Origin: Candidatus Diapherotrites archaeon CG11_big_fil_rev_8_21_14_0_20_37_9 | GTDB lineage: Archaea; Iainarchaeota; Iainarchaeia; Iainarchaeales; Iainarchaeaceae | Direction of reading: 5' to 3' | Assembly (NCBI GenBank): GCA_002762975.1 | Contig: PCWY01000022.1 | Span: 1-31,430 of the forward strand | DNA length: 31,430 nt | In this document: positions 7,303 through 20,699 of the stretch, piece by piece | Position numbering within the stretch: position 1 is the stretch's first letter | Layout of the letters: each line of letters begins with the position of its first letter | Translations under genes and position numbers: made by a program | Notes under the pieces: model-generated | The model's input: only the letters and a program-made list of their open reading frames with translations | The model's database searches: none | What the model was told of the DNA's origin: nothing

Positions 7303-7358
7303 TAAGAATAGTAAATTTTCCTTTAATTTAAACCTTTCCTGCTTGTTTTAGCGATACT

Positions 7359-7368
7359 TATTTAAATT
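7359..7368 (+). promoter_or_regulatory. Putative TATA box of the leu/ilv leader transcript
   Basis: TTTAAATT at 7361-7368, starting 28 nt before ATG 7389; spacing fits an archaeal leaderless start. Confidence 0.55.
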
Positions 7369-7388
7369 TCTAGGACTTAATTATTAAC

Positions 7389-7457
7389 ATGAATTTTAAT
7401 GCAAGAATAAGGAAATTAGGCATTTTGCTTGTCCTTGTACTTGTATTGCTAGCTTAA
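7389..7457 (+). CDS. Putative Leu/Val/Ile-sensing leader peptide MNFNARIRKLGILLVLVLVLLA
   Basis: 22 codons with 7 Leu, 3 Val and 2 Ile; 11 of the last 13 are branched-chain. Lies directly upstream of leuA-ilvB-ilvN-ilvC-leuB. Confidence 0.8.
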   Translation: MNFNARIRKLGILLVLVLVLLA

Positions 7458-7530
7458 GCACCCGCAAAAATTTTCGACTTCTGCGGGGTGCGATTCCAAA
7501 AACACAGAAGTCTTTATAGTAAAGAAGGAG
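7458..7530 (+). promoter_or_regulatory. Attenuator-like alternative hairpins of the leu/ilv leader
   Basis: gcacccgca (7458-7466) with tgcggggtgc (7482-7491) excludes gacttctg (7476-7483) with cagaagtc (7505-7512), which is followed by ttta and then aaggag (7525-7530). Confidence 0.65.
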
Positions 7531-7558
7531 AAATGAAAAAAAAAGAAAAGTGAATTTA

Positions 7559-9109
7559 ATGGAAAAAAAAGTAATTAGAATTTTTGACACAACGCTTCGT
7601 GACGGTGAACAAAGTCCGGGCGCGACACTTTCGCATAAAGAAAAAATTTTAATTGCACAGCAACTTGAACGCCTTAATGTTGATATTATTGAAGCTGGTT
7701 TTCCTGTTGCCTCAAAAGATGATTTTAAAGCAGTGAATGAAATCGCAAAAATACTAAAAAAAAGTATTGTTTGTGCTCTTGCAAGATGCAAAAAAGAGGA
7801 TATTGATGTTGCTGCAAAAGCACTTGAGCCTGCAAAGAAAAAAAGGATTCATGTATTCCTTGCAACATCCCCAATCCATATGAAGTACAAGCTCAAGATG
7901 GATGAATCGCAGGTTCTTGAAGAGGCAGAGAAATGGGTTAAGTATGCAAAGCAGTTTGCTGAGGATATTGAATTTTCTCCTGAAGATGCCGGACGATCAA
8001 ATCCTGAATTTCTTTACAAGGTTCTTAGTGTTGCAATAAAAGCAGGCGCAACAACCCTCAATATACCTGATACTGTTGGTTACACTGAACCTGCAGAGTA
8101 CGGAAAATTAATTAAAGGAATAATTGAAAATACTCCTGGATATCATAAAGGAATTATAATTTCCACGCATTGCCATGATGATCTTGGTTTGAGTGTCGCA
8201 AACAGCCTTGCCGCAATTGATGCAGGCGCGACACAGGTTGAGGGTACAATAAATGGTATTGGTGAAAGAGCAGGAAACACTGCGCTTGAAGAGGTAATAA
8301 TGAACCTTCATTCAAGAGAAAATTATTTCAATGCAACAACCAACATTAATCTTTCAGAAATTTACAATACAAGTAGGATGGTTTCATCTTTTACTTCTCT
8401 TGTGGTTCAGCCTAATAAGGCAATTGTTGGAAGGAATGCGTTTGCGCACGAAGCAGGTATTCATCAGCATGGGATTCTTGCAAACAGGGAAGTTTATGAA
8501 ATAATGAATCCAAAAACAATTGGAAAGGAAACTGAACTTGTTATTGGCAAACATTCAGGAAAAGCAGCTATTAATGATTTTTTAAAAAAGAATGGCTATG
8601 ATTTAAACGAACCTGATGTTGCAGAAGTAACTGAAAGGGTTAAGGCTCTTGCGGATAAGAAAAAAATTATTTTTGATGAAGATGTAATTGCAATTGCAAA
8701 CAGCATTACAAACAGCCTTGAACCTGAAACGGTTTTTGTAAAACTCGAAGAAATAATTATTAATACAGGAAATAAAATGAAACCAACTGCAACTGTGAAG
8801 CTCAGTTATCTTTCACATGAAAAAACAGCAGTTGCTTCAGGAGTTGGACCTGTTGATGCAATGGCAAAAGCAATAAGCTCCGCGCTTGGGGAAAAATTTG
8901 AATTAAAAGAATACAATCTGAAAGCAATAACAGGCGGGACTGATGCGCTTGCTGATGTCACTATTGTGGTTTCAAATAAGGGTGGAAAAATTTTTAGTGC
9001 TGAATCACTGAATGAGGACATTACAATGGCTTCTGCTGAGGCTCTGATAAAGGGTATTAATAAAGCAATTGCGTTTGAAAAAAATGAAAAGGGAGATGAG
9101 TCAAAATGA
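7559..9109 (+). CDS. leuA: 2-isopropylmalate synthase
   Basis: [38 protein letters not shown] and a C-terminal regulatory domain with G.GPVDA. Start is GTG 7550 or ATG 7559. Confidence 0.93.
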
Positions 9110-10800
9110 ACGGTGCGCAACAATTTCTTAAATCTTTGAGGAAAAACAAAGTAGAACATGCTTTCGGCATTCCTGGAGGAGTGCTAATTCCATTCTATGA
9201 TGAATTGTATAAGGATAACAGCGGGCTTAAACATATTCTTGTAAGGCATGAGCAAGCAGGAGCCCACATGGCTGAGGGTTATGCAAAAGTATCCGGAAAA
9301 GTAGGCACATGCATTGGAACATCAGGACCTGGTGCCACAAATCTTGTTACAGGTATTGCGGATGCGTTTATGGATTCTGTGCCAATTGTTGCGATTGGCG
9401 GACAAGTTGCTACATCTCTTATAGGAAAGGACGCTTTTCAGGAAGCAGATATGATGGGAATTACGAATCCAATTACAAAGCATAATTTCCAGATAAGAAA
9501 TCCGAATAAGATTGAATCTGTTGTTGATGCGGCTTATTTTATTGCTTCCACAAACAGACCCGGTCCGGTTTATATTGATCTTCCTAAAGATACTCAGCAA
9601 AAAGATGTAACTGGTTCTGAAAAGGTAAATTTATCTGGTTACAAAGTTCTTGAAGGTTTTGATAAAGAGGCTGTAAAGGAGGCTGCAAAACTTTTACTTT
9701 CTGCACAAAGACCTGTAATTCTTGTTGGCGGTGGAGCAGTTCATGCGAATTGTTCACAGGAATTAAAGCAGCTTGCTGAAATTTGTATGATTATGGTTGC
9801 AAGTACCAGTCAAGGTAAGGGCGTTTTTGATGAAAGGCATCCGCTTTCAATTGGCATGACAGGAATGCATGGTAAACCGCCTGCTGTTTTTGCAATTCAA
9901 AAAAGTGATGTGCTTTTTACAATTGGAATGCGTTTCGATGATCGTGTTACAGGACAATTGAATTCTTTTGCACCAGAAGCAAAGGTTATTCATATTGAAA
10001 TTGATCCTAGTGAGATTCACAAAAACAGAACTGCTAACATCCCTATTCTTGGTGATGCAAAAGATGTTCTTACTGAATTAGTTATTGTTATAAAAAAAAT
10101 GCAATGGAAGAACACTGCTTGGTTGGATAAACTGAAATTATTGAAGAAAGAATACCAGGATGATAATCTTGATATTAATACTGAGCCGATTGATCCGAGA
10201 AAATTGATGTTCGAGCTTCAGAAAGTAATTGATGATGACACTATTGTTGCAACAGGTGTCGGCGAGCATCAAATGGATGTTGCGCATTTCATTAAGTTTG
10301 CAAAACCAAGAAAATTCATTACTTCAGGCGGTCTTGGAACAATGGGTTTTGGTTTTCCTGCAGCAATAGGCGCGAAAGTTGCGATGCCAAAAAATGATGT
10401 AATTAATGTTGATGGTGATGGTAGCTTTATGATGACAATGCAGGAACTTGCCACAGTAAAGGTCAATGATATCAAGGTTACTAATATTATAATGAATAAT
10501 GGTTACCTTGGAATGGTAAGAAGTTGGCATGATCTTTTCTATGAAGGTAGGAGAAGCCAGGTTCATCTTGGAAAAATACCTGATTTTGAAAAGCTTGCAA
10601 ATGCATTTTCGCTTGAGGGCATTACTGTTGAAAGGCCATCTGAAATAGGAGATGCATTTAAAAGAGCGCTTGCAAGTGATGGTACTTCTATAGTGAATGT
10701 GCATGTTAAAGAGGATGCAATTGTATTACCTATAGTTCCTGCAGGTGCAAGCAACAGCAAGATGATTGGAGATATGATTCCAAAGGATTATTTTGAATGA
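9106..10800 (+). CDS. ilvB: Acetolactate synthase large subunit
   Basis: FGIPGG, RHEQAGAHMAEGYA, SGPGATN, GQV, TSGGLGTMGFG and the ThDP motif GDGSF...NN. ATGA overlap with leuA. Confidence 0.95.
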   Translation: MNGAQQFLKSLRKNKVEHAFGIPGGVLIPFYDELYKDNSGLKHILVRHEQAGAHMAEGYAKVSGKVGTCIGTSGPGATNLVTGIADAFMDSVPIVAIGGQVATSLIGKDAFQEADMMGITNPITKHNFQIRNPNKIESVVDAAYFIASTNRPGPVYIDLPKDTQQKDVTGSEKVNLSGYKVLEGFDKEAVKEAAKLLLSAQRPVILVGGGAVHANCSQELKQLAEICMIMVASTSQGKGVFDERHPLSIGMTGMHGKPPAVFAIQKSDVLFTIGMRFDDRVTGQLNSFAPEAKVIHIEIDPSEIHKNRTANIPILGDAKDVLTELVIVIKKMQWKNTAWLDKLKLLKKEYQDDNLDINTEPIDPRKLMFELQKVIDDDTIVATGVGEHQMDVAHFIKFAKPRKFITSGGLGTMGFGFPAAIGAKVAMPKNDVINVDGDGSFMMTMQELATVKVNDIKVTNIIMNNGYLGMVRSWHDLFYEGRRSQVHLGKIPDFEKLANAFSLEGITVERPSEIGDAFKRALASDGTSIVNVHVKEDAIVLPIVPAGASNSKMIGDMIPKDYFE

Positions 10801-11276
10801 ATGGGGGTGCATGGGTTATGGAAAAATATATTATAAAATTTCTTGCAGTAAATTCAAGAGGAGTAATTGCACGGCTTTCTGCTCTTATTGCAAGAAAAGG
10901 TTTCAATATTGAGTCTTTTTGTGCAGGCCATCATATCAAAGATGGTGAAAGTTCTATTGTAATAACTTTTTCAGGGTCTGAGGGAGATGTTCAGCAGGCT
11001 GTTGCACAGATGAGCAAACTGATTAACATTATCAGTGCTGAATATTATCACGAAAAGGATGTTGTACAGCGTGAGCTTCTTCTTGTGAAACTCAAAAATG
11101 TTTCAGGAGTAAAAGAAAAGGCTCAGGCTCTTGGCGGCAGGCTTATGAAAGAATATAGTGGATTTGTTGATTTTGAATTTGTCGATAAACCAAACAGTAT
11201 TGAAAAAAATGTCGCTGAATTAAAGAAAAATTTTACTGTGATTGATATTTCAAGGAGCGGTAACAATGCGATTTAA
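10797..11276 (+). CDS. ilvN: Acetolactate synthase small (ACT regulatory) subunit
   Basis: N..GVIARLSALIARKGFNIES ACT domain, QMSKLINII, QRELLLVK and terminal SRSG. Alternative start ATG 10818. Confidence 0.85.
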   Translation: MNGGAWVMEKYIIKFLAVNSRGVIARLSALIARKGFNIESFCAGHHIKDGESSIVITFSGSEGDVQQAVAQMSKLINIISAEYYHEKDVVQRELLLVKLKNVSGVKEKAQALGGRLMKEYSGFVDFEFVDKPNSIEKNVAELKKNFTVIDISRSGNNAI

Positions 11277-11321: not shown

Positions 11322-12305
11322 GTGAAATTTTTGAAGGACAAAGATGCTGATGTTAATTCAGTAAAGGGAAAAACTATTGCAGTTATTGGTTATGGTGCAC
11401 AGGGTGCTGCTCAGGCAATGTGTATGAAAGATTCTGGTCTTAACGTAATAATTGGATTGAGGCAGGGCAGCGAGAAATGGAAAACTGCAGAACAGTATGG
11501 TTTTGAGGTTCTTGAAACAGCAAAAGCTGCTGAGAAAGCCGATATAATCCATGTTCTTATGCCTGATGAAAAGCAGGCTGATGCATTTGAAAATGACATT
11601 AAACCTCATTTAACAAAAGGAAAAACTCTTTCATTTTCACATGGATTTAACATTTGTTACAAGTTCATTGTTCCTCCAACAGACATTGATGTTATAATGG
11701 TTGCGCCGAAAGCCCCTGGCACAGAAGAAAGAAAACAGTTTTTGCAGGGCTTTGGTGTTCCTGGTCTTATTTCAATAAGGCAGGATGTTTCAGGCAATGC
11801 AAAAAAAACCGCGCTTGCAATGGCAAAAGCATGTGGTTTCACAAGGGCAGGAGTAATTGAATGCACTTTTGAACAGGAAACATTTGAGGATCTTTTCGGA
11901 GAACAGGCTGTTCTTTGTGGAGGGCTTTCTGAATTGATTACTACAGGCTTTGAAACTCTTGTTGAGGCGGGTTATCCTGCTGAAATGGCTTATTTTGAAT
12001 GCCTTCATGAAACAAAACTCATTGTTGACCTTATTTATGAAGGCGGAATGACTCATATGTGGGATGTTGTTTCAAATACTGCTGAATACGGTGGCAGGAC
12101 AAGAGGAAAGGCAATTATAGATCCTGAAGTAAAGCAGAGAATGAAGAAGCTTCTTGCTGATGTTGAATCAGGGAAATTTGCCAATGAGTGGATTGCCGAG
12201 TATAAAAGCGGATTGAAGAATTTCAAAAAACTCAGGGAAGAGCAGAATAACCATGAGATTGAAATTGTTGGCAAAGAGATTAGGGATCTTTTCAAAAAAG
12301 AGTGA
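11322..12305 (+). CDS. ilvC: Ketol-acid reductoisomerase
   Basis: [48 protein letters not shown] and [17 protein letters not shown] precedes the GTG start. Confidence 0.96.
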
Positions 12306-13447
12306 TTTCATTGGTTAAATATAAAATTGCGCTGATGCCCGGAGACGGCATCGGTCCCGAAATAATTTCTGAGGGCAGAAAAGTAATTGATGCTGTTTCA
12401 GAGCTCAATGGATTTGAAATTGATTGGGTTGAGTATAATAATGGCGCCGAGAAATATCTCAAAACTGGTGAATTAATTACTGAAGAAACCCTTGCGGAAA
12501 TTAAGGGTTCATGTAAAGCAATTTATCTTGGCGCGCTTGGAGATCCAAGGTGCAAGCCAGGTATTTTAGAAAAAGGAATTCTTCTCAAAACAAGGTTTTA
12601 TTTTGACCAGTATGTTAACTTAAGGCCAATTAAATTACTTGATGGTGTTGATTGTCCGCTTAAGGGTAAGGGTCCAAAGGATATTGATTTTACTGTTGTA
12701 CGCGAAAACACTGAGGACTTTTATGTTGGCATAGGTAATCGTGTTGGTAAAGGAAATTCAAAGCAGGGGCTTGAAGTTCTTCGTGAATTGTATAAAGTTA
12801 AATTTGGTCTTGATATTGAAAGCACGGATGAAATTGCTTATCAGATTGGTGTGATGAGCAAATCTGGTGCTGATCGCGTGATAAAATATGGGTTTGAACT
12901 TGCAAAAAAAGAAAATGTTGAAACAGTTTATTTTGTTGACAAGGCAAATGTGCTTTCCGACATTTATGGTTTTTGGCGTGAAAGGGTTGAGTTGCAGGCA
13001 AAGAATTATCCTGGCATAAAACCTGAGTTCATGTTTGTTGACGCAATTACCATGTGGTTTGTGAAAAATCCTGAATGGTTTAAGGTTGTCACAACTCCGA
13101 ACATGTTTGGTGATATTATAACTGATTTAGGCGCAATGATTCAGGGTGGTTTAGGTTTGGCGCCTGGCGGAAACATTAATCCTGATGGAATTTCAATGTT
13201 CGAACCAATTCATGGTTCTGCTCCAAAGTATAAGGGTCTTGATACTGCAAATCCACTTGCAACAATATGGGCAGGTGCATTAATGCTTGAGGAAATAGGT
13301 GAACCAGAATCAAAGGAGCTTATTGTGAATGCAATTCAGGAAATTTTGAAAGAAGGGAAAGTAAAAACAAAAGACCTTGGTGGCACGCATAAATGCAGTG
13401 AAATGGGTTCTGCTGTTGCTGAAAAGTGCAAAGAGCTTTTTCAGTAG
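12302..13447 (+). CDS. leuB: 3-isopropylmalate dehydrogenase (isocitrate/isopropylmalate dehydrogenase family)
   Basis: [33 protein letters not shown] and FEPIHGSAP, plus operon context. Confidence 0.85.
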
Positions 13448-13509
13448 TTTATTTTTCTGAACTTATTTTTGGAGATAAAAATAATAATTCAACTTAACCT
13501 AATTCTTTA

Positions 13510-14385
13510 ATGTTATTTGATCCCTTAATTATTGCTTTTATTGTAGCTTTTATTGGATTTATTTTTCAGAAAAAATTTGGTTTTGATCAAAAATCACTGG
13601 CAAATATCCTTATTTACATTACTGGTCCGGCGCTTACATTTGCAGCAATTTATTCAAAAGAAATTATTCTTCATGAATTTTTTGTAATAGGGGTTTCGGC
13701 ATTTGCTGTGATGTTTGCATCAGGTATTTTTGCATATTTGCTTTATCGTGTACTTGGTTACACTGGAACGGGAATGATTCTTCCTGCAATGTTCATGAAT
13801 TCTGCCTATCTTGGTTTTCCTGTTGCGCTTTTTGCTTTTGGAGAAGAAGGTTTACAATATGCAATAATTTATGATTTATTTGAAACACTTTTGATGTTTT
13901 CGCTTGGGGTTTTTCTTGTTCAAAGTGCATTGAAAAAAAAGCGGGAAAAACTTGCAGGAATTTTAAAATTACCTTTGATTTATGCCATTTCATTTGCAAT
14001 TATTTTTAATTTTGCACAAATTCAGATTCCTTCAGTTCTTGTTGAATCATTGAACCTATTGGGTCTTGCTACAATACCTCTTGCTTTACTTTCACTTGGG
14101 GGAAGACTTGCCCAACTTAAAATTGGTTCATTAAAAATACCGGTTGCTGCGGTTTTTTCAAGGCTTGCAATAGGCGCGGTAATCGGACTTGCTTTTGTAT
14201 ATTTATTTAATCTCTCTGGAATTCTTGCTTCAATTGTTCTTTTGCTTTCGGTGATGCCTCCTGCGGTTAACAGTTATGTGCTTAATGAAAAGTTTTCAAA
14301 TGAAGCTGATAATGCAGCAACTGCTGTTTTAATTGGAACTATTTTGAGTGTGATTCCTATAGGCATTATTCTTTTTTTCCATTAA
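13510..14385 (+). CDS. AEC (auxin efflux carrier / malate permease-like) family transporter
   Basis: About 10 hydrophobic segments; NSAYLGFPV and SVMPPAVNSY motifs. Confidence 0.85.
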   Translation: MLFDPLIIAFIVAFIGFIFQKKFGFDQKSLANILIYITGPALTFAAIYSKEIILHEFFVIGVSAFAVMFASGIFAYLLYRVLGYTGTGMILPAMFMNSAYLGFPVALFAFGEEGLQYAIIYDLFETLLMFSLGVFLVQSALKKKREKLAGILKLPLIYAISFAIIFNFAQIQIPSVLVESLNLLGLATIPLALLSLGGRLAQLKIGSLKIPVAAVFSRLAIGAVIGLAFVYLFNLSGILASIVLLLSVMPPAVNSYVLNEKFSNEADNAATAVLIGTILSVIPIGIILFFH

Positions 14386-14439
14386 TTTAAATTTTTTGTG
14401 TAAACAAAAAGAATATAATGTACAAAATGCATTAGTTGA

Positions 14440-14885: not shown

Positions 14886-14978
14886 ATGTTATACGCTACA
14901 ATTGCAAAGAATGATTCAGCTGTTTCAAAAGTAGCTTCGGCATTTGCTTTTTATTTCTATTTCTTTTTCTTTAAATAA
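14886..14978 (+). CDS. Putative Phe/Tyr-sensing leader peptide MLYATIAKNDSAVSKVASAFAFYFYFFFFK
   Basis: 30 codons ending FAFYFYFFFFK (7 Phe and 3 Tyr in total), 102 nt upstream of pheA. Confidence 0.8.
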   Translation: MLYATIAKNDSAVSKVASAFAFYFYFFFFK

Positions 14979-14979
14979 C

Positions 14980-15029
14980 ACCCTTTCTGACCTTTGGCAA
15001 GAAGGATTGGGTTTCCAAAAAGTTTTTTT
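14980..15029 (+). promoter_or_regulatory. Attenuator-like hairpins and T7 tract after the Phe/Tyr leader
   Basis: Imperfect stem accc/gggt plus tttct/agaag (14980-15012) competes with ttgg-gttt-ccaa (15007-15018). T7 at 15023-15029. Confidence 0.5.
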
Positions 15030-15080
15030 AAGTTAAATTAAATTAGGGTTGAAAATAAATTTTGAAAATTGGTGAGGTTT

Positions 15081-16148
15081 ATGAGTTTGGAGAAAACAAG
15101 AAAAAAAATTGATGAAGTTGATGATGAAATAGTTGATTTATTGAATAAGCGCCTTGAACTCGCTATTGATGTTGGCAAAGAAAAAAAAGAACACAGCGAA
15201 ATTGTTTATGATCCTGTAAGGGAAGAACAGATAATTGAAAAGCTTGCAAAAAAAAGCAAGGGTTTTCCAAAAGAGGGCATTGAGTCAGTATTCAGAGAAA
15301 TTTTTAGTGTTTCAAGAAAGGCACAGTCCCCTATAAAGATTGCTTACCTTGGGCCTGAAACAACATTCACGCATTCAGCTGCATTAAAACAATTTGGTAC
15401 GCAGGCGGAGTATAAATCAAAAGACTCTATTAATGATGTTTTTCTTTCCGTTGAAAAAGGCGAAACCGATTTTGGTGTTGTTCCTGTAGAAAATAGCATG
15501 GAAGGTTCAGTCAATAGAACCTACGATAGGCTCATTACATCGGAACTTAATATTGTTGGTGAAATCTCATTGAAAGTAAACCATAATCTTCTTTCTAAAT
15601 ACAGGTTAAGAGATATCACAAAGATCTACAGTCATCCTATGGCGATTGCTCAATGCAGGGAATGGATTTCGAAGAATTTGCCAAAAGCGGAAATATTTGA
15701 AGTGAGTTCAACTGCGGCAAGTGTTGAAGCAGGCACTTTGTATTTAAATTCTGCTGGCATTGGTTCTGAGCTTGCTGCACAAAAATTTGGTTTGCAGGTT
15801 GTTGAAAAAAATATTCAGGATTTAAGCTCCAATTATACAAGATTCCTTGTGCTTGGCAGGGTGATGCCTAAAAAATCTAGTAAAAGCAAAACAAGTATTG
15901 TTTTTTCGGCAAAGCATGAACCAGGTTCTTTGTTTAATGCACTTGAGCCTCTTAAAAAGCATATGATTAACATGACTAAAATAGAGTCAAGACCGACAAG
16001 GATGAGAAACTGGGAGTATGTGTTCTTTGTTGATTTCCAGGGGTATGTTGAGGATGAAAATGTGGTAAAAGCACTTGGGGAAATGAAGAAAAATACTGCC
16101 CTACTGAAAATACTCGGGTCTTATCCTGAAAAAGCGAGGTTTGAATAA
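15081..16148 (+). CDS. pheA: Bifunctional chorismate mutase / prephenate dehydratase with ACT domain
   Basis: N-terminal R.KIDEVD..IV.LLNKR (AroQ), LGPETTFT, VPVENSMEGSV, NYTRFLVL, INMTKIESRP and LGSY. GGTGAGG RBS precedes ATG 15081. Confidence 0.95.
   Translation: MSLEKTRKKIDEVDDEIVDLLNKRLELAIDVGKEKKEHSEIVYDPVREEQIIEKLAKKSKGFPKEGIESVFREIFSVSRKAQSPIKIAYLGPETTFTHSAALKQFGTQAEYKSKDSINDVFLSVEKGETDFGVVPVENSMEGSVNRTYDRLITSELNIVGEISLKVNHNLLSKYRLRDITKIYSHPMAIAQCREWISKNLPKAEIFEVSSTAASVEAGTLYLNSAGIGSELAAQKFGLQVVEKNIQDLSSNYTRFLVLGRVMPKKSSKSKTSIVFSAKHEPGSLFNALEPLKKHMINMTKIESRPTRMRNWEYVFFVDFQGYVEDENVVKALGEMKKNTALLKILGSYPEKARFE
16128..16148 (+). repeat. Direct repeat copy 1 (pheA 3' end)
   Basis: gaaaaagcgaggtttgaataa, identical to 17138-17158. 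Confidence 0.95.
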
Positions 16149-16151
16149 TTC

Positions 16152-16176
16152 TTAAAAAAATGGGAGATTTTTTTAA
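16152..16176 (+). terminator. A/T hairpin and T tract after pheA
   Basis: ttaaaaaaa-tgggaga-tttttttaa. Confidence 0.35.
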
Positions 16177-16213
16177 AAAAAAAACTCGCACCGACAAAGT
16201 AGCTTAAAAATGG

Positions 16214-19936: not shown

Positions 19937-20578
19937 ATGAAATTAATTTTGTGCAGACACGGACAAACAGACTACAATAAAGAGCACAGGCTACAGGGAA
20001 GTCTTGAAACTGACATAAGTTCAGAAGGTAGAAAGCAGGCCAGGGAAGTTGGGGATTTTTTAAAATCAAAAGAATTTGATTTTGCTTTTTGTTCTCCTCA
20101 AAAAAGATGTATGCAGACTGCTTCTGAAATAATGGCATTTCATAAGGATAAAGAGCTTGTTCAGCGAAATGAATTAAGGGAAATAGATGTTGGTAAATAT
20201 GAAGGAATGAATCCGGCGGAAATAGAAAAAAAATTTCCAGGAGACTGGAAAAAGCGTATGCAGGATAAATATTCTTTTGTTCATGCAGCTGGTGAAAGTT
20301 ATGCCAAAATGGATTCTGAAAGAATAAAGCCTTTGCTTCAGGAATTTAAGGAAAAATATTACAGCCGAACCTTGTTGTTGGTAACTCATATGGGAACTGG
20401 CAGACTCATAATAGGGAATATGCTTGGGCTCAAAGGAAAAGAAATGATGGAAATTCATTTTCCTAATGACTGTATTTATTTTATTGAATATAGACCACAT
20501 AAAACCGTACTTGAATATGTTCTTGTTGAAACAGGGAAAAAAGGAAAAGGATTCATAACAGATACTGATTATTATTGA
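19937..20578 (+). CDS. Histidine phosphatase (phosphoglycerate mutase-like) family protein
   Basis: LILCRHGQTDYN, SPQKRCMQTA, LREID.G.YEG, GES and VTH. Confidence 0.9.
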   Translation: MKLILCRHGQTDYNKEHRLQGSLETDISSEGRKQAREVGDFLKSKEFDFAFCSPQKRCMQTASEIMAFHKDKELVQRNELREIDVGKYEGMNPAEIEKKFPGDWKKRMQDKYSFVHAAGESYAKMDSERIKPLLQEFKEKYYSRTLLLVTHMGTGRLIIGNMLGLKGKEMMEIHFPNDCIYFIEYRPHKTVLEYVLVETGKKGKGFITDTDYY

Positions 20579-20699
20579 AAATCAGCTTTTTTTCATGATT
20601 TAAGGGACGTTTATTCAAGGTATTTTGAATTTTATACCGAAAAATATTTATTCAACCTCCAAGCTATTAGTGTTATAGTTTTGGTTTGGGGGGATTGGT

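Follow-up and report, generated by a model that had tools for sequence, protein, structure and literature searches.

Leader-peptide attenuation is a textbook form of gene control that needs translation to run close behind transcription. In the classical bacterial attenuators (leuL-leuABCD of E. coli and Salmonella, ilvL, ivbL, pheL and trpL; RF00512), a short open reading frame (ORF) with a run of cognate codons precedes a biosynthetic operon. One strand of the leader RNA has two possible pairing partners, and a ribosome that has reached the stop codon blocks the first arm of the upstream helix. The whole is self-contained, and its distance from the first gene varies. Corynebacterium glutamicum has leader peptides of ilvB, leuA, trpE and aroF (PMC3890552), and for its ilvBNC operon a three-hairpin attenuator model with an Ile/Val/Leu leader is proposed (PMC11857589). 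The actinobacterial LEU element upstream of leuA combines a Leu-run ORF with a conserved structure that can be read as a pseudoknot or as an alternative hairpin (Seliverstov et al., 2005). No terminator is obvious in it, and a base stem joins the Leu codons to the leuA Shine-Dalgarno box (PMC1262725). In mycobacteria, stalling on leaderless poly-Cys short ORFs controls operon translation through Shine-Dalgarno masking, with polar effects (10.1101/834739). Full-text literature searches returned no report of leader-peptide attenuation in archaea, the described cases being bacterial. Here we describe a candidate for such an element upstream of leuA in a 31,430-nucleotide (nt) contig, hereafter the window, from Candidatus Diapherotrites archaeon CG11_big_fil_rev_8_21_14_0_20_37_9 (PCWY01000022.1, assembly GCA_002762975.1).

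The locus resembles the classical attenuators in its predicted layout: a Leu/Val/Ile-rich leader ORF is followed by two candidate alternative helices, P1 and P2, and a conserved box. We judge it somewhat better than an even chance that the leuA-ilvBNC-leuB messenger begins with an amino-acid sensor of the leader-peptide kind and that the interval 7458-7530 forms the RNA switch of this sensor. The sensing half of this proposal is well supported by comparison among genomes, and the output is its weak point. The parts of the element, together with a hairpin (P0) inside the leader ORF, are as follows.

7358..7367, + strand: TATA box ttatttaaat, in which TTTAAA begins 28 nt 5' of the leader ATG.
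7389..7457, + strand: leader ORF MNFNARIRKLGILLVLVLVLLA, 22 codons, with stop codon TAA at 7455-7457; Leu, Val and Ile make up 10 of its last 12 residues.
7397..7448, + strand: P0, a hairpin inside the leader ORF, present in the minimum free energy (MFE) structure, in which the Leu/Val codons pair with polar codons near the N-terminal end.
7458..7491, + strand: P1, a GC-rich hairpin of 9 base pairs (bp), 7458-7466 with 7482-7491, with G7485 bulged; no base separates it from the stop codon.
7476..7512, + strand: P2, GACUUCUG (7476-7483) paired with CAGAAGUC (7505-7512), with the A-rich linker 7492-7504 in its loop.
7505..7518, + strand: conserved box CAGAAGUCNUUAGA, CAGAAGUC-N-UUA-(G/U)-A, which alignments mark as the element's most conserved stretch and its 3' boundary.
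7519..7558, + strand: purine-rich spacer from the box to leuA, containing aaggag and a mini-ORF encoding MKKKEK.

The evidence for the sensor comes largely from relatives of the host. A covariance model built from the regions upstream of leuA in 12 relatives found exactly one match per genome in 13 of 23 genomes of the family. All 12 family genomes with this leuA carry the element (G000 included), a thirteenth (G014) has it at a contig end, and none of the remaining 10, which are without this leuA, yielded a match. Within a sample of 151 genomes of the order, the element was found in four other families too, giving a total of 20 genomes in at least five families, each with one module placed before leuA or, in two genomes, before ilvB. 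Both ilvB cases belong to one other family (G064, L124:1501-1595; G078, L130:308-396). Their leaders are Val-rich (Val/Ala-rich), with six Val and three Leu in the last 12 residues of one and four Val and three Leu in those of the other; this shift toward Val before ilvB, seen in two related genomes only, is the direction that would be expected of an amino-acid sensor. A pattern scan of metagenomes produced two true matches only, identical to G003 and G018. Rfam, its Leu_leader family RF00512 included, has no match to the window at the gathering score; when 7340-7600 was searched at E up to 10, nothing matched either.

Almost all of the last 13 codons of the leader ORF specify Leu, Val or Ile. 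The ORF is kept in all 20 genomes at a length of 21-32 codons, with 7-11 of the last 12 residues being Leu, Val or Ile; upstream of leuA in 12 relatives compared by eye, it spans 21-25 codons and ends in VLVLLA before the stop. When the final ten codons are compared across the 20 ORFs, position 2 of the codon is nearly fixed as T (19 non-majority letters) and positions 1 and 3 are variable (69 and 88 non-majority letters, respectively). All six Leu codons and all four Val codons occur, many changes are synonymous, more than half of the amino-acid differences between leader ORFs stay within Leu, Val and Ile, and the stop codon varies among TAA, TAG and TGA. This pattern of NTN codons with a free third position and varying stops is of the coding type. 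Its hydrophobic run, about 12 residues almost purely of Leu, Val and Ile, is too short for a membrane span. Because a TATA box lies about 28 nt before the leader ATG (28-31 nt in most members of the family and 35-40 nt in a few; about 25-30 nt in the 12 relatives compared by eye), archaeal promoter geometry predicts that the leader mRNA is leaderless or nearly so.

The ORF itself is structured. Its fold has a z score of -4.5 in this window and a mean of -2.4 over the 20 genomes, and P0 duplexes formed from the two arms of one genome average -18.6 kcal/mol compared to -14.9 kcal/mol for cross-genome combinations; no consensus structure for P0 was found on a MAFFT alignment. P0 explains the conservation, at the nucleotide level, of GUAUUGCUAGC and of the N-terminal 'S/N-G/A-N' codons, and its role could lie in pausing, in protection of the transcript or in slowing down the ribosome. 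Stimulation of frameshifting or read-through by the post-stop structure was considered and rejected: the distance from stop codon to box varies between 46 and 50 nt, and no frame is kept.

The first-pass annotation, made from the window's letters alone, had placed a 9-bp stem with one bulged G directly after the leader stop, with gacttc (7476-7481) in its loop, and these coordinates proved exact. P1 consists of G7458-C7491, C7459-G7490, A7460-U7489, C7461-G7488, C7462-G7487 and C7463-G7486 and, above the bulged G7485, of G7464-C7484, C7465-G7483 and A7466-U7482; in its 15-nt loop an A-run, a U-run and CGACUUC follow one another. RNAfold returns P1 as both the MFE and the centroid hairpin of the region, and the 186-nt region as a single sequence is only mildly better than shuffles (z = -2.0). 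The case against chance comes from comparison. P1 forms in 20 of 20 genomes, 0-1 nt after the leader stop. Its pairs were counted upward from the stem base in a register without gaps, anchored at the ends, because alignments made with MAFFT or RNAalifold misplace the 3' arm. Across seven positions in 20 genomes, 133 of 140 cells are canonical, compared to 54-89 when the partner strand is slid by one or two positions, and 0 of 2000 column shuffles reach the observed pairing or covariation score; since the genomes are related, that last count is not a probability, and the double changes are plain nonetheless. Compensatory changes fall at five of the seven positions: position 1 is GC, AU or CG; position 2 CG or UA; position 3 AU, GC, UA, GU or UG; position 5 CG in eight genomes and UA in eight; and position 6 CG, UA or UG. 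G-U pairs are frequent, and the folded molecule is therefore the RNA of the + strand and not a DNA duplex. P1 is, on this covariation, a real RNA helix, and the covariation in related genomes, whose absence the annotation had named as refuting, is clear for it.

The second stem had likewise been described correctly, as a perfect 8-bp pairing of 7476-7483 with 7505-7512 followed by ttta (7513-7516). The box that supplies its 3' arm lies 46-50 nt past the leader stop in 13 genomes and, with its context, occurs once in the 1.13-Mb assembly; UUCGRCUUCUG upstream of the box is conserved in relatives, and the linker between them is A-rich in all genomes. When P2 is taken as 12 pairs on the model-based alignment, 74.8% of its cells are paired, compared to 28-53% in slid registers. 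Changes in the core of P2 are all one-sided: 8 of the 17 sequences that pair have G-U for A-U, and C-G gives way to U-G. The varying A or G stands opposite an invariant U, which fits RNA pairing and not a DNA palindrome.

Mutual exclusion of the two stems, as first proposed, is weak in this window and stronger in most relatives. Here P1 and P2 share only U7482 and G7483, and the extension of P2 beyond its core into the 3' arm of P1 amounts to 0 bp. Most relatives extend P2 by 2-5 bp further into that arm, and in many the overlap of the two helices reaches 4-7 nt. The extension totals 30 bp in 16 genomes versus 9.7 ± 3.6 bp in linker shuffles (0 of 3000 reach it), with pyrimidines able to pair with the G-rich P1 3' arm enriched directly upstream of CAGAAG. 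Since the extension exceeds chance, P1 and P2 would truly compete in most relatives. Their predicted stabilities are similar, and the MFE structure alternates between P1 and P2 from genome to genome.

We then modelled the effect of ribosome position by folding 7389-7520 with a 28-nt ribosome footprint masked. With the stop codon in the ribosome A site the fold goes to P2, and with a P site at 7431-7443, corresponding to a stall in the middle of the run, it goes to P1. The proposed switch, in which a ribosome at the stop would favour the downstream stem and a stalled one the upstream stem, agrees with the fold at these positions; at the extremes of the run (P site 7425 or 7446) the fold returns to P2, and the calculation is indicative only. 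A further pairing suggested for the leader, ttttgc (7423-7428) with gcaaaa (7464-7469), is complementary as described and is not conserved: helices of the 1:2 type between the Leu/Val run and the first 14 nt after the stop have a mean duplex z of -0.05 against shuffled arms over the 20 genomes.

The mechanism we propose would work as follows. The messenger would begin at or just before the leader ATG, and we infer that the leader ORF is translated. When Leu, Val and Ile are plentiful, the ribosome would reach the stop codon, where its footprint would cover the 5' arm of P1; P2 would then arise from the freed P1 loop and 3' arm together with the downstream box. Under a shortage of charged Leu or Val tRNA, the ribosome would stall in the run, P1 would form as it is transcribed and the box would stay single-stranded. 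The operon would be 'on' with P1 and 'off' with P2. As output we favour an action on the transcript: at P2 and the box, or directly beyond them, transcription would pause or a 3' end would form prematurely, perhaps with the help of aCPSF1/FttA. This would not be a bacterial-type terminator of hairpin plus U-tract. A wider version of this proposal is more tentative, and we hold it a little less probable than its contrary: that the locus is a ribosome-read archaeal attenuator, one of at least two in the genome (Leu/Val for leuA-ilvBNC-leuB and Phe/Tyr/Trp for pheA), with an oligo-U-free 'off' state set by a hairpin and the CAGAAGUCNUUAGA box through pausing or through 3'-end formation of the aCPSF1/FttA type.

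Several observations weigh against this account. Intrinsic termination in archaea depends on oligo-U. A U-run of four or more follows P2 in 0 of 19 genomes, N-UUA-(G/U)-A standing there instead, though ordinary gene ends in this genome, unlike P2, carry T5-T7; the classical terminator implied by the first-pass annotation is not supported. P2 also lacks the covariation seen in P1. It shows no compensatory changes beyond sequence conservation (within-column shuffles equal it in 32 of 500), its pairing being kept by conserved sequence and wobble changes, and it is weak or absent in five of 19 genomes (G014, G064, G042, G157 and G149), with the qualification that in G149 it is missing in the masked fold only and the extension analysis gives a wobble-rich core of 6 bp plus 2 bp. 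Most of these genomes retain the box, including G149 and G042 although their CUUCUG partner has diverged, and in G157 it has diverged to GAUGAGUC. Because the box is more conserved than its pairing partner, it probably has a further sequence-specific role. The calculated energies of P1 and P2 in this window are close (-13.7 versus -12.4 kcal/mol), which makes thermodynamic predictions fragile, and with no ribosome P0 and P1 would form, a default 'on' state opposite to that of classical attenuators. Public RNA runs included none with this DNA, and related metatranscriptomes yielded scraps only. Finally, the topology in this window permits P1 and P2 to form together as an H-type pseudoknot.

If the two helices did coexist after the stop codon in this way, with the P2 5' arm in the P1 loop and the A-rich stretch 7492-7504 as the third loop, the structure with the conserved box would act as a static site, to be recognised by a protein, by a ligand or by the ribosome as it terminates, and no switch would operate. 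We consider this rather unlikely. It agrees with the two-nucleotide overlap in this window, with the A-rich linker of all genomes (such linkers are typical of many pseudoknots with minor-groove triples), and with the conservation of the box and the UUCGRCUUCUG loop beyond what pairing needs. However, the reach of P2 into the P1 3' arm in most relatives (2-5 bp, 30 bp in total versus 9.7 expected) makes the full helices incompatible, the genome-to-genome alternation of the MFE structure is what a balanced switch would give, and no Rfam family matches at E up to 10. P1 and the box could instead act separately, P1 protecting the transcript or blocking ribosomes or exonucleases and the box binding an RNA- (or DNA-) binding regulator, in which case any sensing of amino acids by the leader ORF would operate via mRNA stability. 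That compensatory covariation is confined to P1, that the box persists without its partner in G149 and G042, that a near-identical AAAAGUCUUAGA occurs in the pheA leader of G012, and that Leu-rich ORFs of other families have predicted post-stop helices unrelated in sequence, two of three no better than shuffles, all speak for such a division. A stand-alone protein site nevertheless leaves the pyrimidine enrichment upstream of CAGAAG unexplained, the purine opposite the invariant U fits RNA pairing, and the box lies about 115-130 nt downstream of the predicted start, an unusual distance for the site of an archaeal DNA-binding regulator. We regard separate action as unlikely.

Control at the level of translation, in which the switch would alter access to the leuA ribosome-binding site (RBS) through CUUCU:AGAAG pairing or through Leu/Val codons paired with the purine spacer, appears very unlikely. 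The first-pass annotation had raised it on the basis of cttct (7478-7482) and agaag (7523-7527) beside aaggag (7525-7530); these are indeed complementary, Shine-Dalgarno-like purine motifs follow the box in many genomes, and the mycobacterial system offers a precedent (10.1101/834739). The control itself did not hold up in modelling, in which the leuA RBS (mean unpaired probability from -14 to +5, 13 genomes) was equally accessible in the free, mid-run and at-stop states (0.49, 0.47 and 0.49), and masking of the leuA RBS was set aside on this ground. The strong aaggag motif is 28 nt away from the leuA ATG and serves no gene but the six-codon mini-ORF (MKKKEK and stop, 7533-7553), whose stop overlaps a GTG at 7550; neither the motif nor the mini-ORF is conserved. 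In relatives the spacer between box and leuA ranges from about 20 to 130 nt and is purine-rich and not alignable. A third hairpin (P3), of the box tail (UCNUUA) with purines further downstream, seemed on inspection to show compensatory changes and was discarded, as 485 of 3000 cross-genome permutations reach it. Some relatives have repeated GGGRAAA units in this spacer (G003, G021 and G012). The variable distance from box to gene and the self-contained module favour an output at the transcript level, which is probably where the element acts. A U-tract in or after P1 was also tried as a terminator and set aside, since U4-U7 is present there in some genomes and absent in others (for example G009, G064 and G027). 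Highly improbable, finally, is the notion that the interval has no regulatory function and is a product of chance or a gene for a small hydrophobic peptide with incidental hairpins. The modest single-sequence z score of -2.0 and the lack of expression data would suit it; the conservation of the module in at least five families in strict linkage to leuA or ilvB, the P1 covariation, the coding-type codon pattern and a run of about 12 residues, too short to span a membrane and almost only Leu, Val and Ile, do not.

The proposed sensor differs from each described system. Compared to the classical attenuators it has an archaeal host, a TATA promoter and a predicted leaderless or near-leaderless ORF; it is without a U-tract and without 1:2 pairing, having P0 inside the ORF instead; its default in the absence of translation would be P1 and not a terminator-like helix; and it matches no Rfam family in sequence or structure. 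The C. glutamicum leaders concern the same pathways, branched-chain and aromatic, but are bacterial and end in an intrinsic terminator, which the archaeal element lacks, and share no sequence with it. In its character of a pseudoknot or alternative hairpin without a terminator, the LEU element is the closest likeness; it differs in that the archaeal leuA RBS is, by thermodynamic modelling, no more or less accessible when the run is masked, that the archaeal spacer is variable, and that the two have no sequence similarity. With the mycobacterial poly-Cys ORFs the element shares a cognate-codon-rich first ORF that is leaderless, in the archaeal case by prediction; those systems are bacterial, and the Shine-Dalgarno masking by which they and the LEU element are proposed to act is not supported here. 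The archaeal element resembles the bacterial leu, ilv and phe leaders in its input logic and belongs to none of these families, because it has no terminator, no 1:2 helix and no Rfam match and is driven by an archaeal promoter.

The window contains a second leader ORF, upstream of pheA:

14886-14978: pheA leader ORF, MLYATIAKNDSAVSKVASAFAFYFYFFFFK, ending in AFAFYFYFFFFK before its stop; it has its own TATA box and precedes pheA.

Within 14886-15030, a hairpin directly follows the stop of this leader, and then come CCAAAAAG and T7. Relatives keep a Phe/Tyr/Trp-rich pheA leader ORF (for example AFYFYFWFFK or YFNSFFYFFW at its end) together with the post-stop hairpin, and in two genera (g1 and g2) the hairpin is followed by an A-run and then by four to nine U, the counterpart in this window being T7. 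This Phe/Tyr/Trp leader, kept by relatives, suggests that the host lineage uses the leader principle more than once. The pheA leader of G012 (L148) has AAAAGUCUUAGA about 10 nt after its post-stop hairpin, a near match to the leu box that was seen once and may be coincidental. A rough scan of the assembly for single-amino-acid leader ORFs behind TATA boxes found, besides the leu leader, the pheA leader only; one further Leu-rich match, on contig C34, was dropped, as no biosynthetic gene lies downstream. Genomes of other families have unrelated Leu-rich ORFs before leuA (G032, L017; G040, L010; G037, L012), with endings such as SLTLLLLLAL or LEKLLLLLR. Post-stop helices are predicted there with z scores of -2.95 for G032 and of -0.90 and -0.15 for the other two, so that only G032 clearly beats shuffles; in G032, UAGAAAUUUUUU follows the post-stop hairpin.

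Downstream of the element lies the operon leuA-ilvB-ilvN-ilvC-leuB:

7559..9109, + strand: leuA, 2-isopropylmalate synthase (NCBIfam NF002086, 705 bits), first gene of the operon, with its ATG at 7559.
9106-10800: ilvB, downstream of leuA.
10797-11276: ilvN, following ilvB.
11322-12305: ilvC, following ilvN.
12302-13447: leuB, last gene of the operon.

The genome collection's closest leuA homologues from beyond Iainarchaeota belong to Clostridia, Aquificota and Chloroflexota, at 50-54% identity, and the leuA operon may have been acquired from bacteria. Transfer of the element together with a bacterial leuA was rejected, the covariance model matching nothing upstream of 40 bacterial leuA homologues. 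Gene ends elsewhere in the window (13445-13500, 14383-14420, 16146-16190 and 20576-20600) have T5-T7 runs. An A-run able to pair with the T-run often lies a few bases upstream of it, as in the A7-loop-T7 after pheA, and this arrangement may be the usual terminator form of the host genome.

Profile searches show that the assembly (1.13 Mb, 37% G+C, 85% complete) encodes TBP with two repeats and an aCPSF1/FttA orthologue (839 bits). Among control genomes, the TBP family matches archaea only and only archaea exceed the aCPSF1 cut-off. As both proteins are present above the cut-offs, the host is, on its gene content, an archaeon; its lineage is Iainarchaeota (DPANN), and its DNA is contained in groundwater and aquifer metagenomes. 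Plastocyanin and KaiC-like genes had at first pointed to a thaumarchaeal origin, a reading that was dropped for Iainarchaeota.

The element would make two matters testable: whether archaea use coupled translation to regulate transcription, and how archaeal RNA polymerase, or aCPSF1, can be halted at a regulated site that has no oligo-U tract. If the proposed mechanism is true, it would constitute an output mechanism without a bacterial counterpart and would provide direct evidence of transcription-translation coupling in archaeal gene control. It would also mean that some DPANN archaea, a group usually viewed as dependent symbionts, make branched-chain and aromatic amino acids and finely regulate their synthesis.

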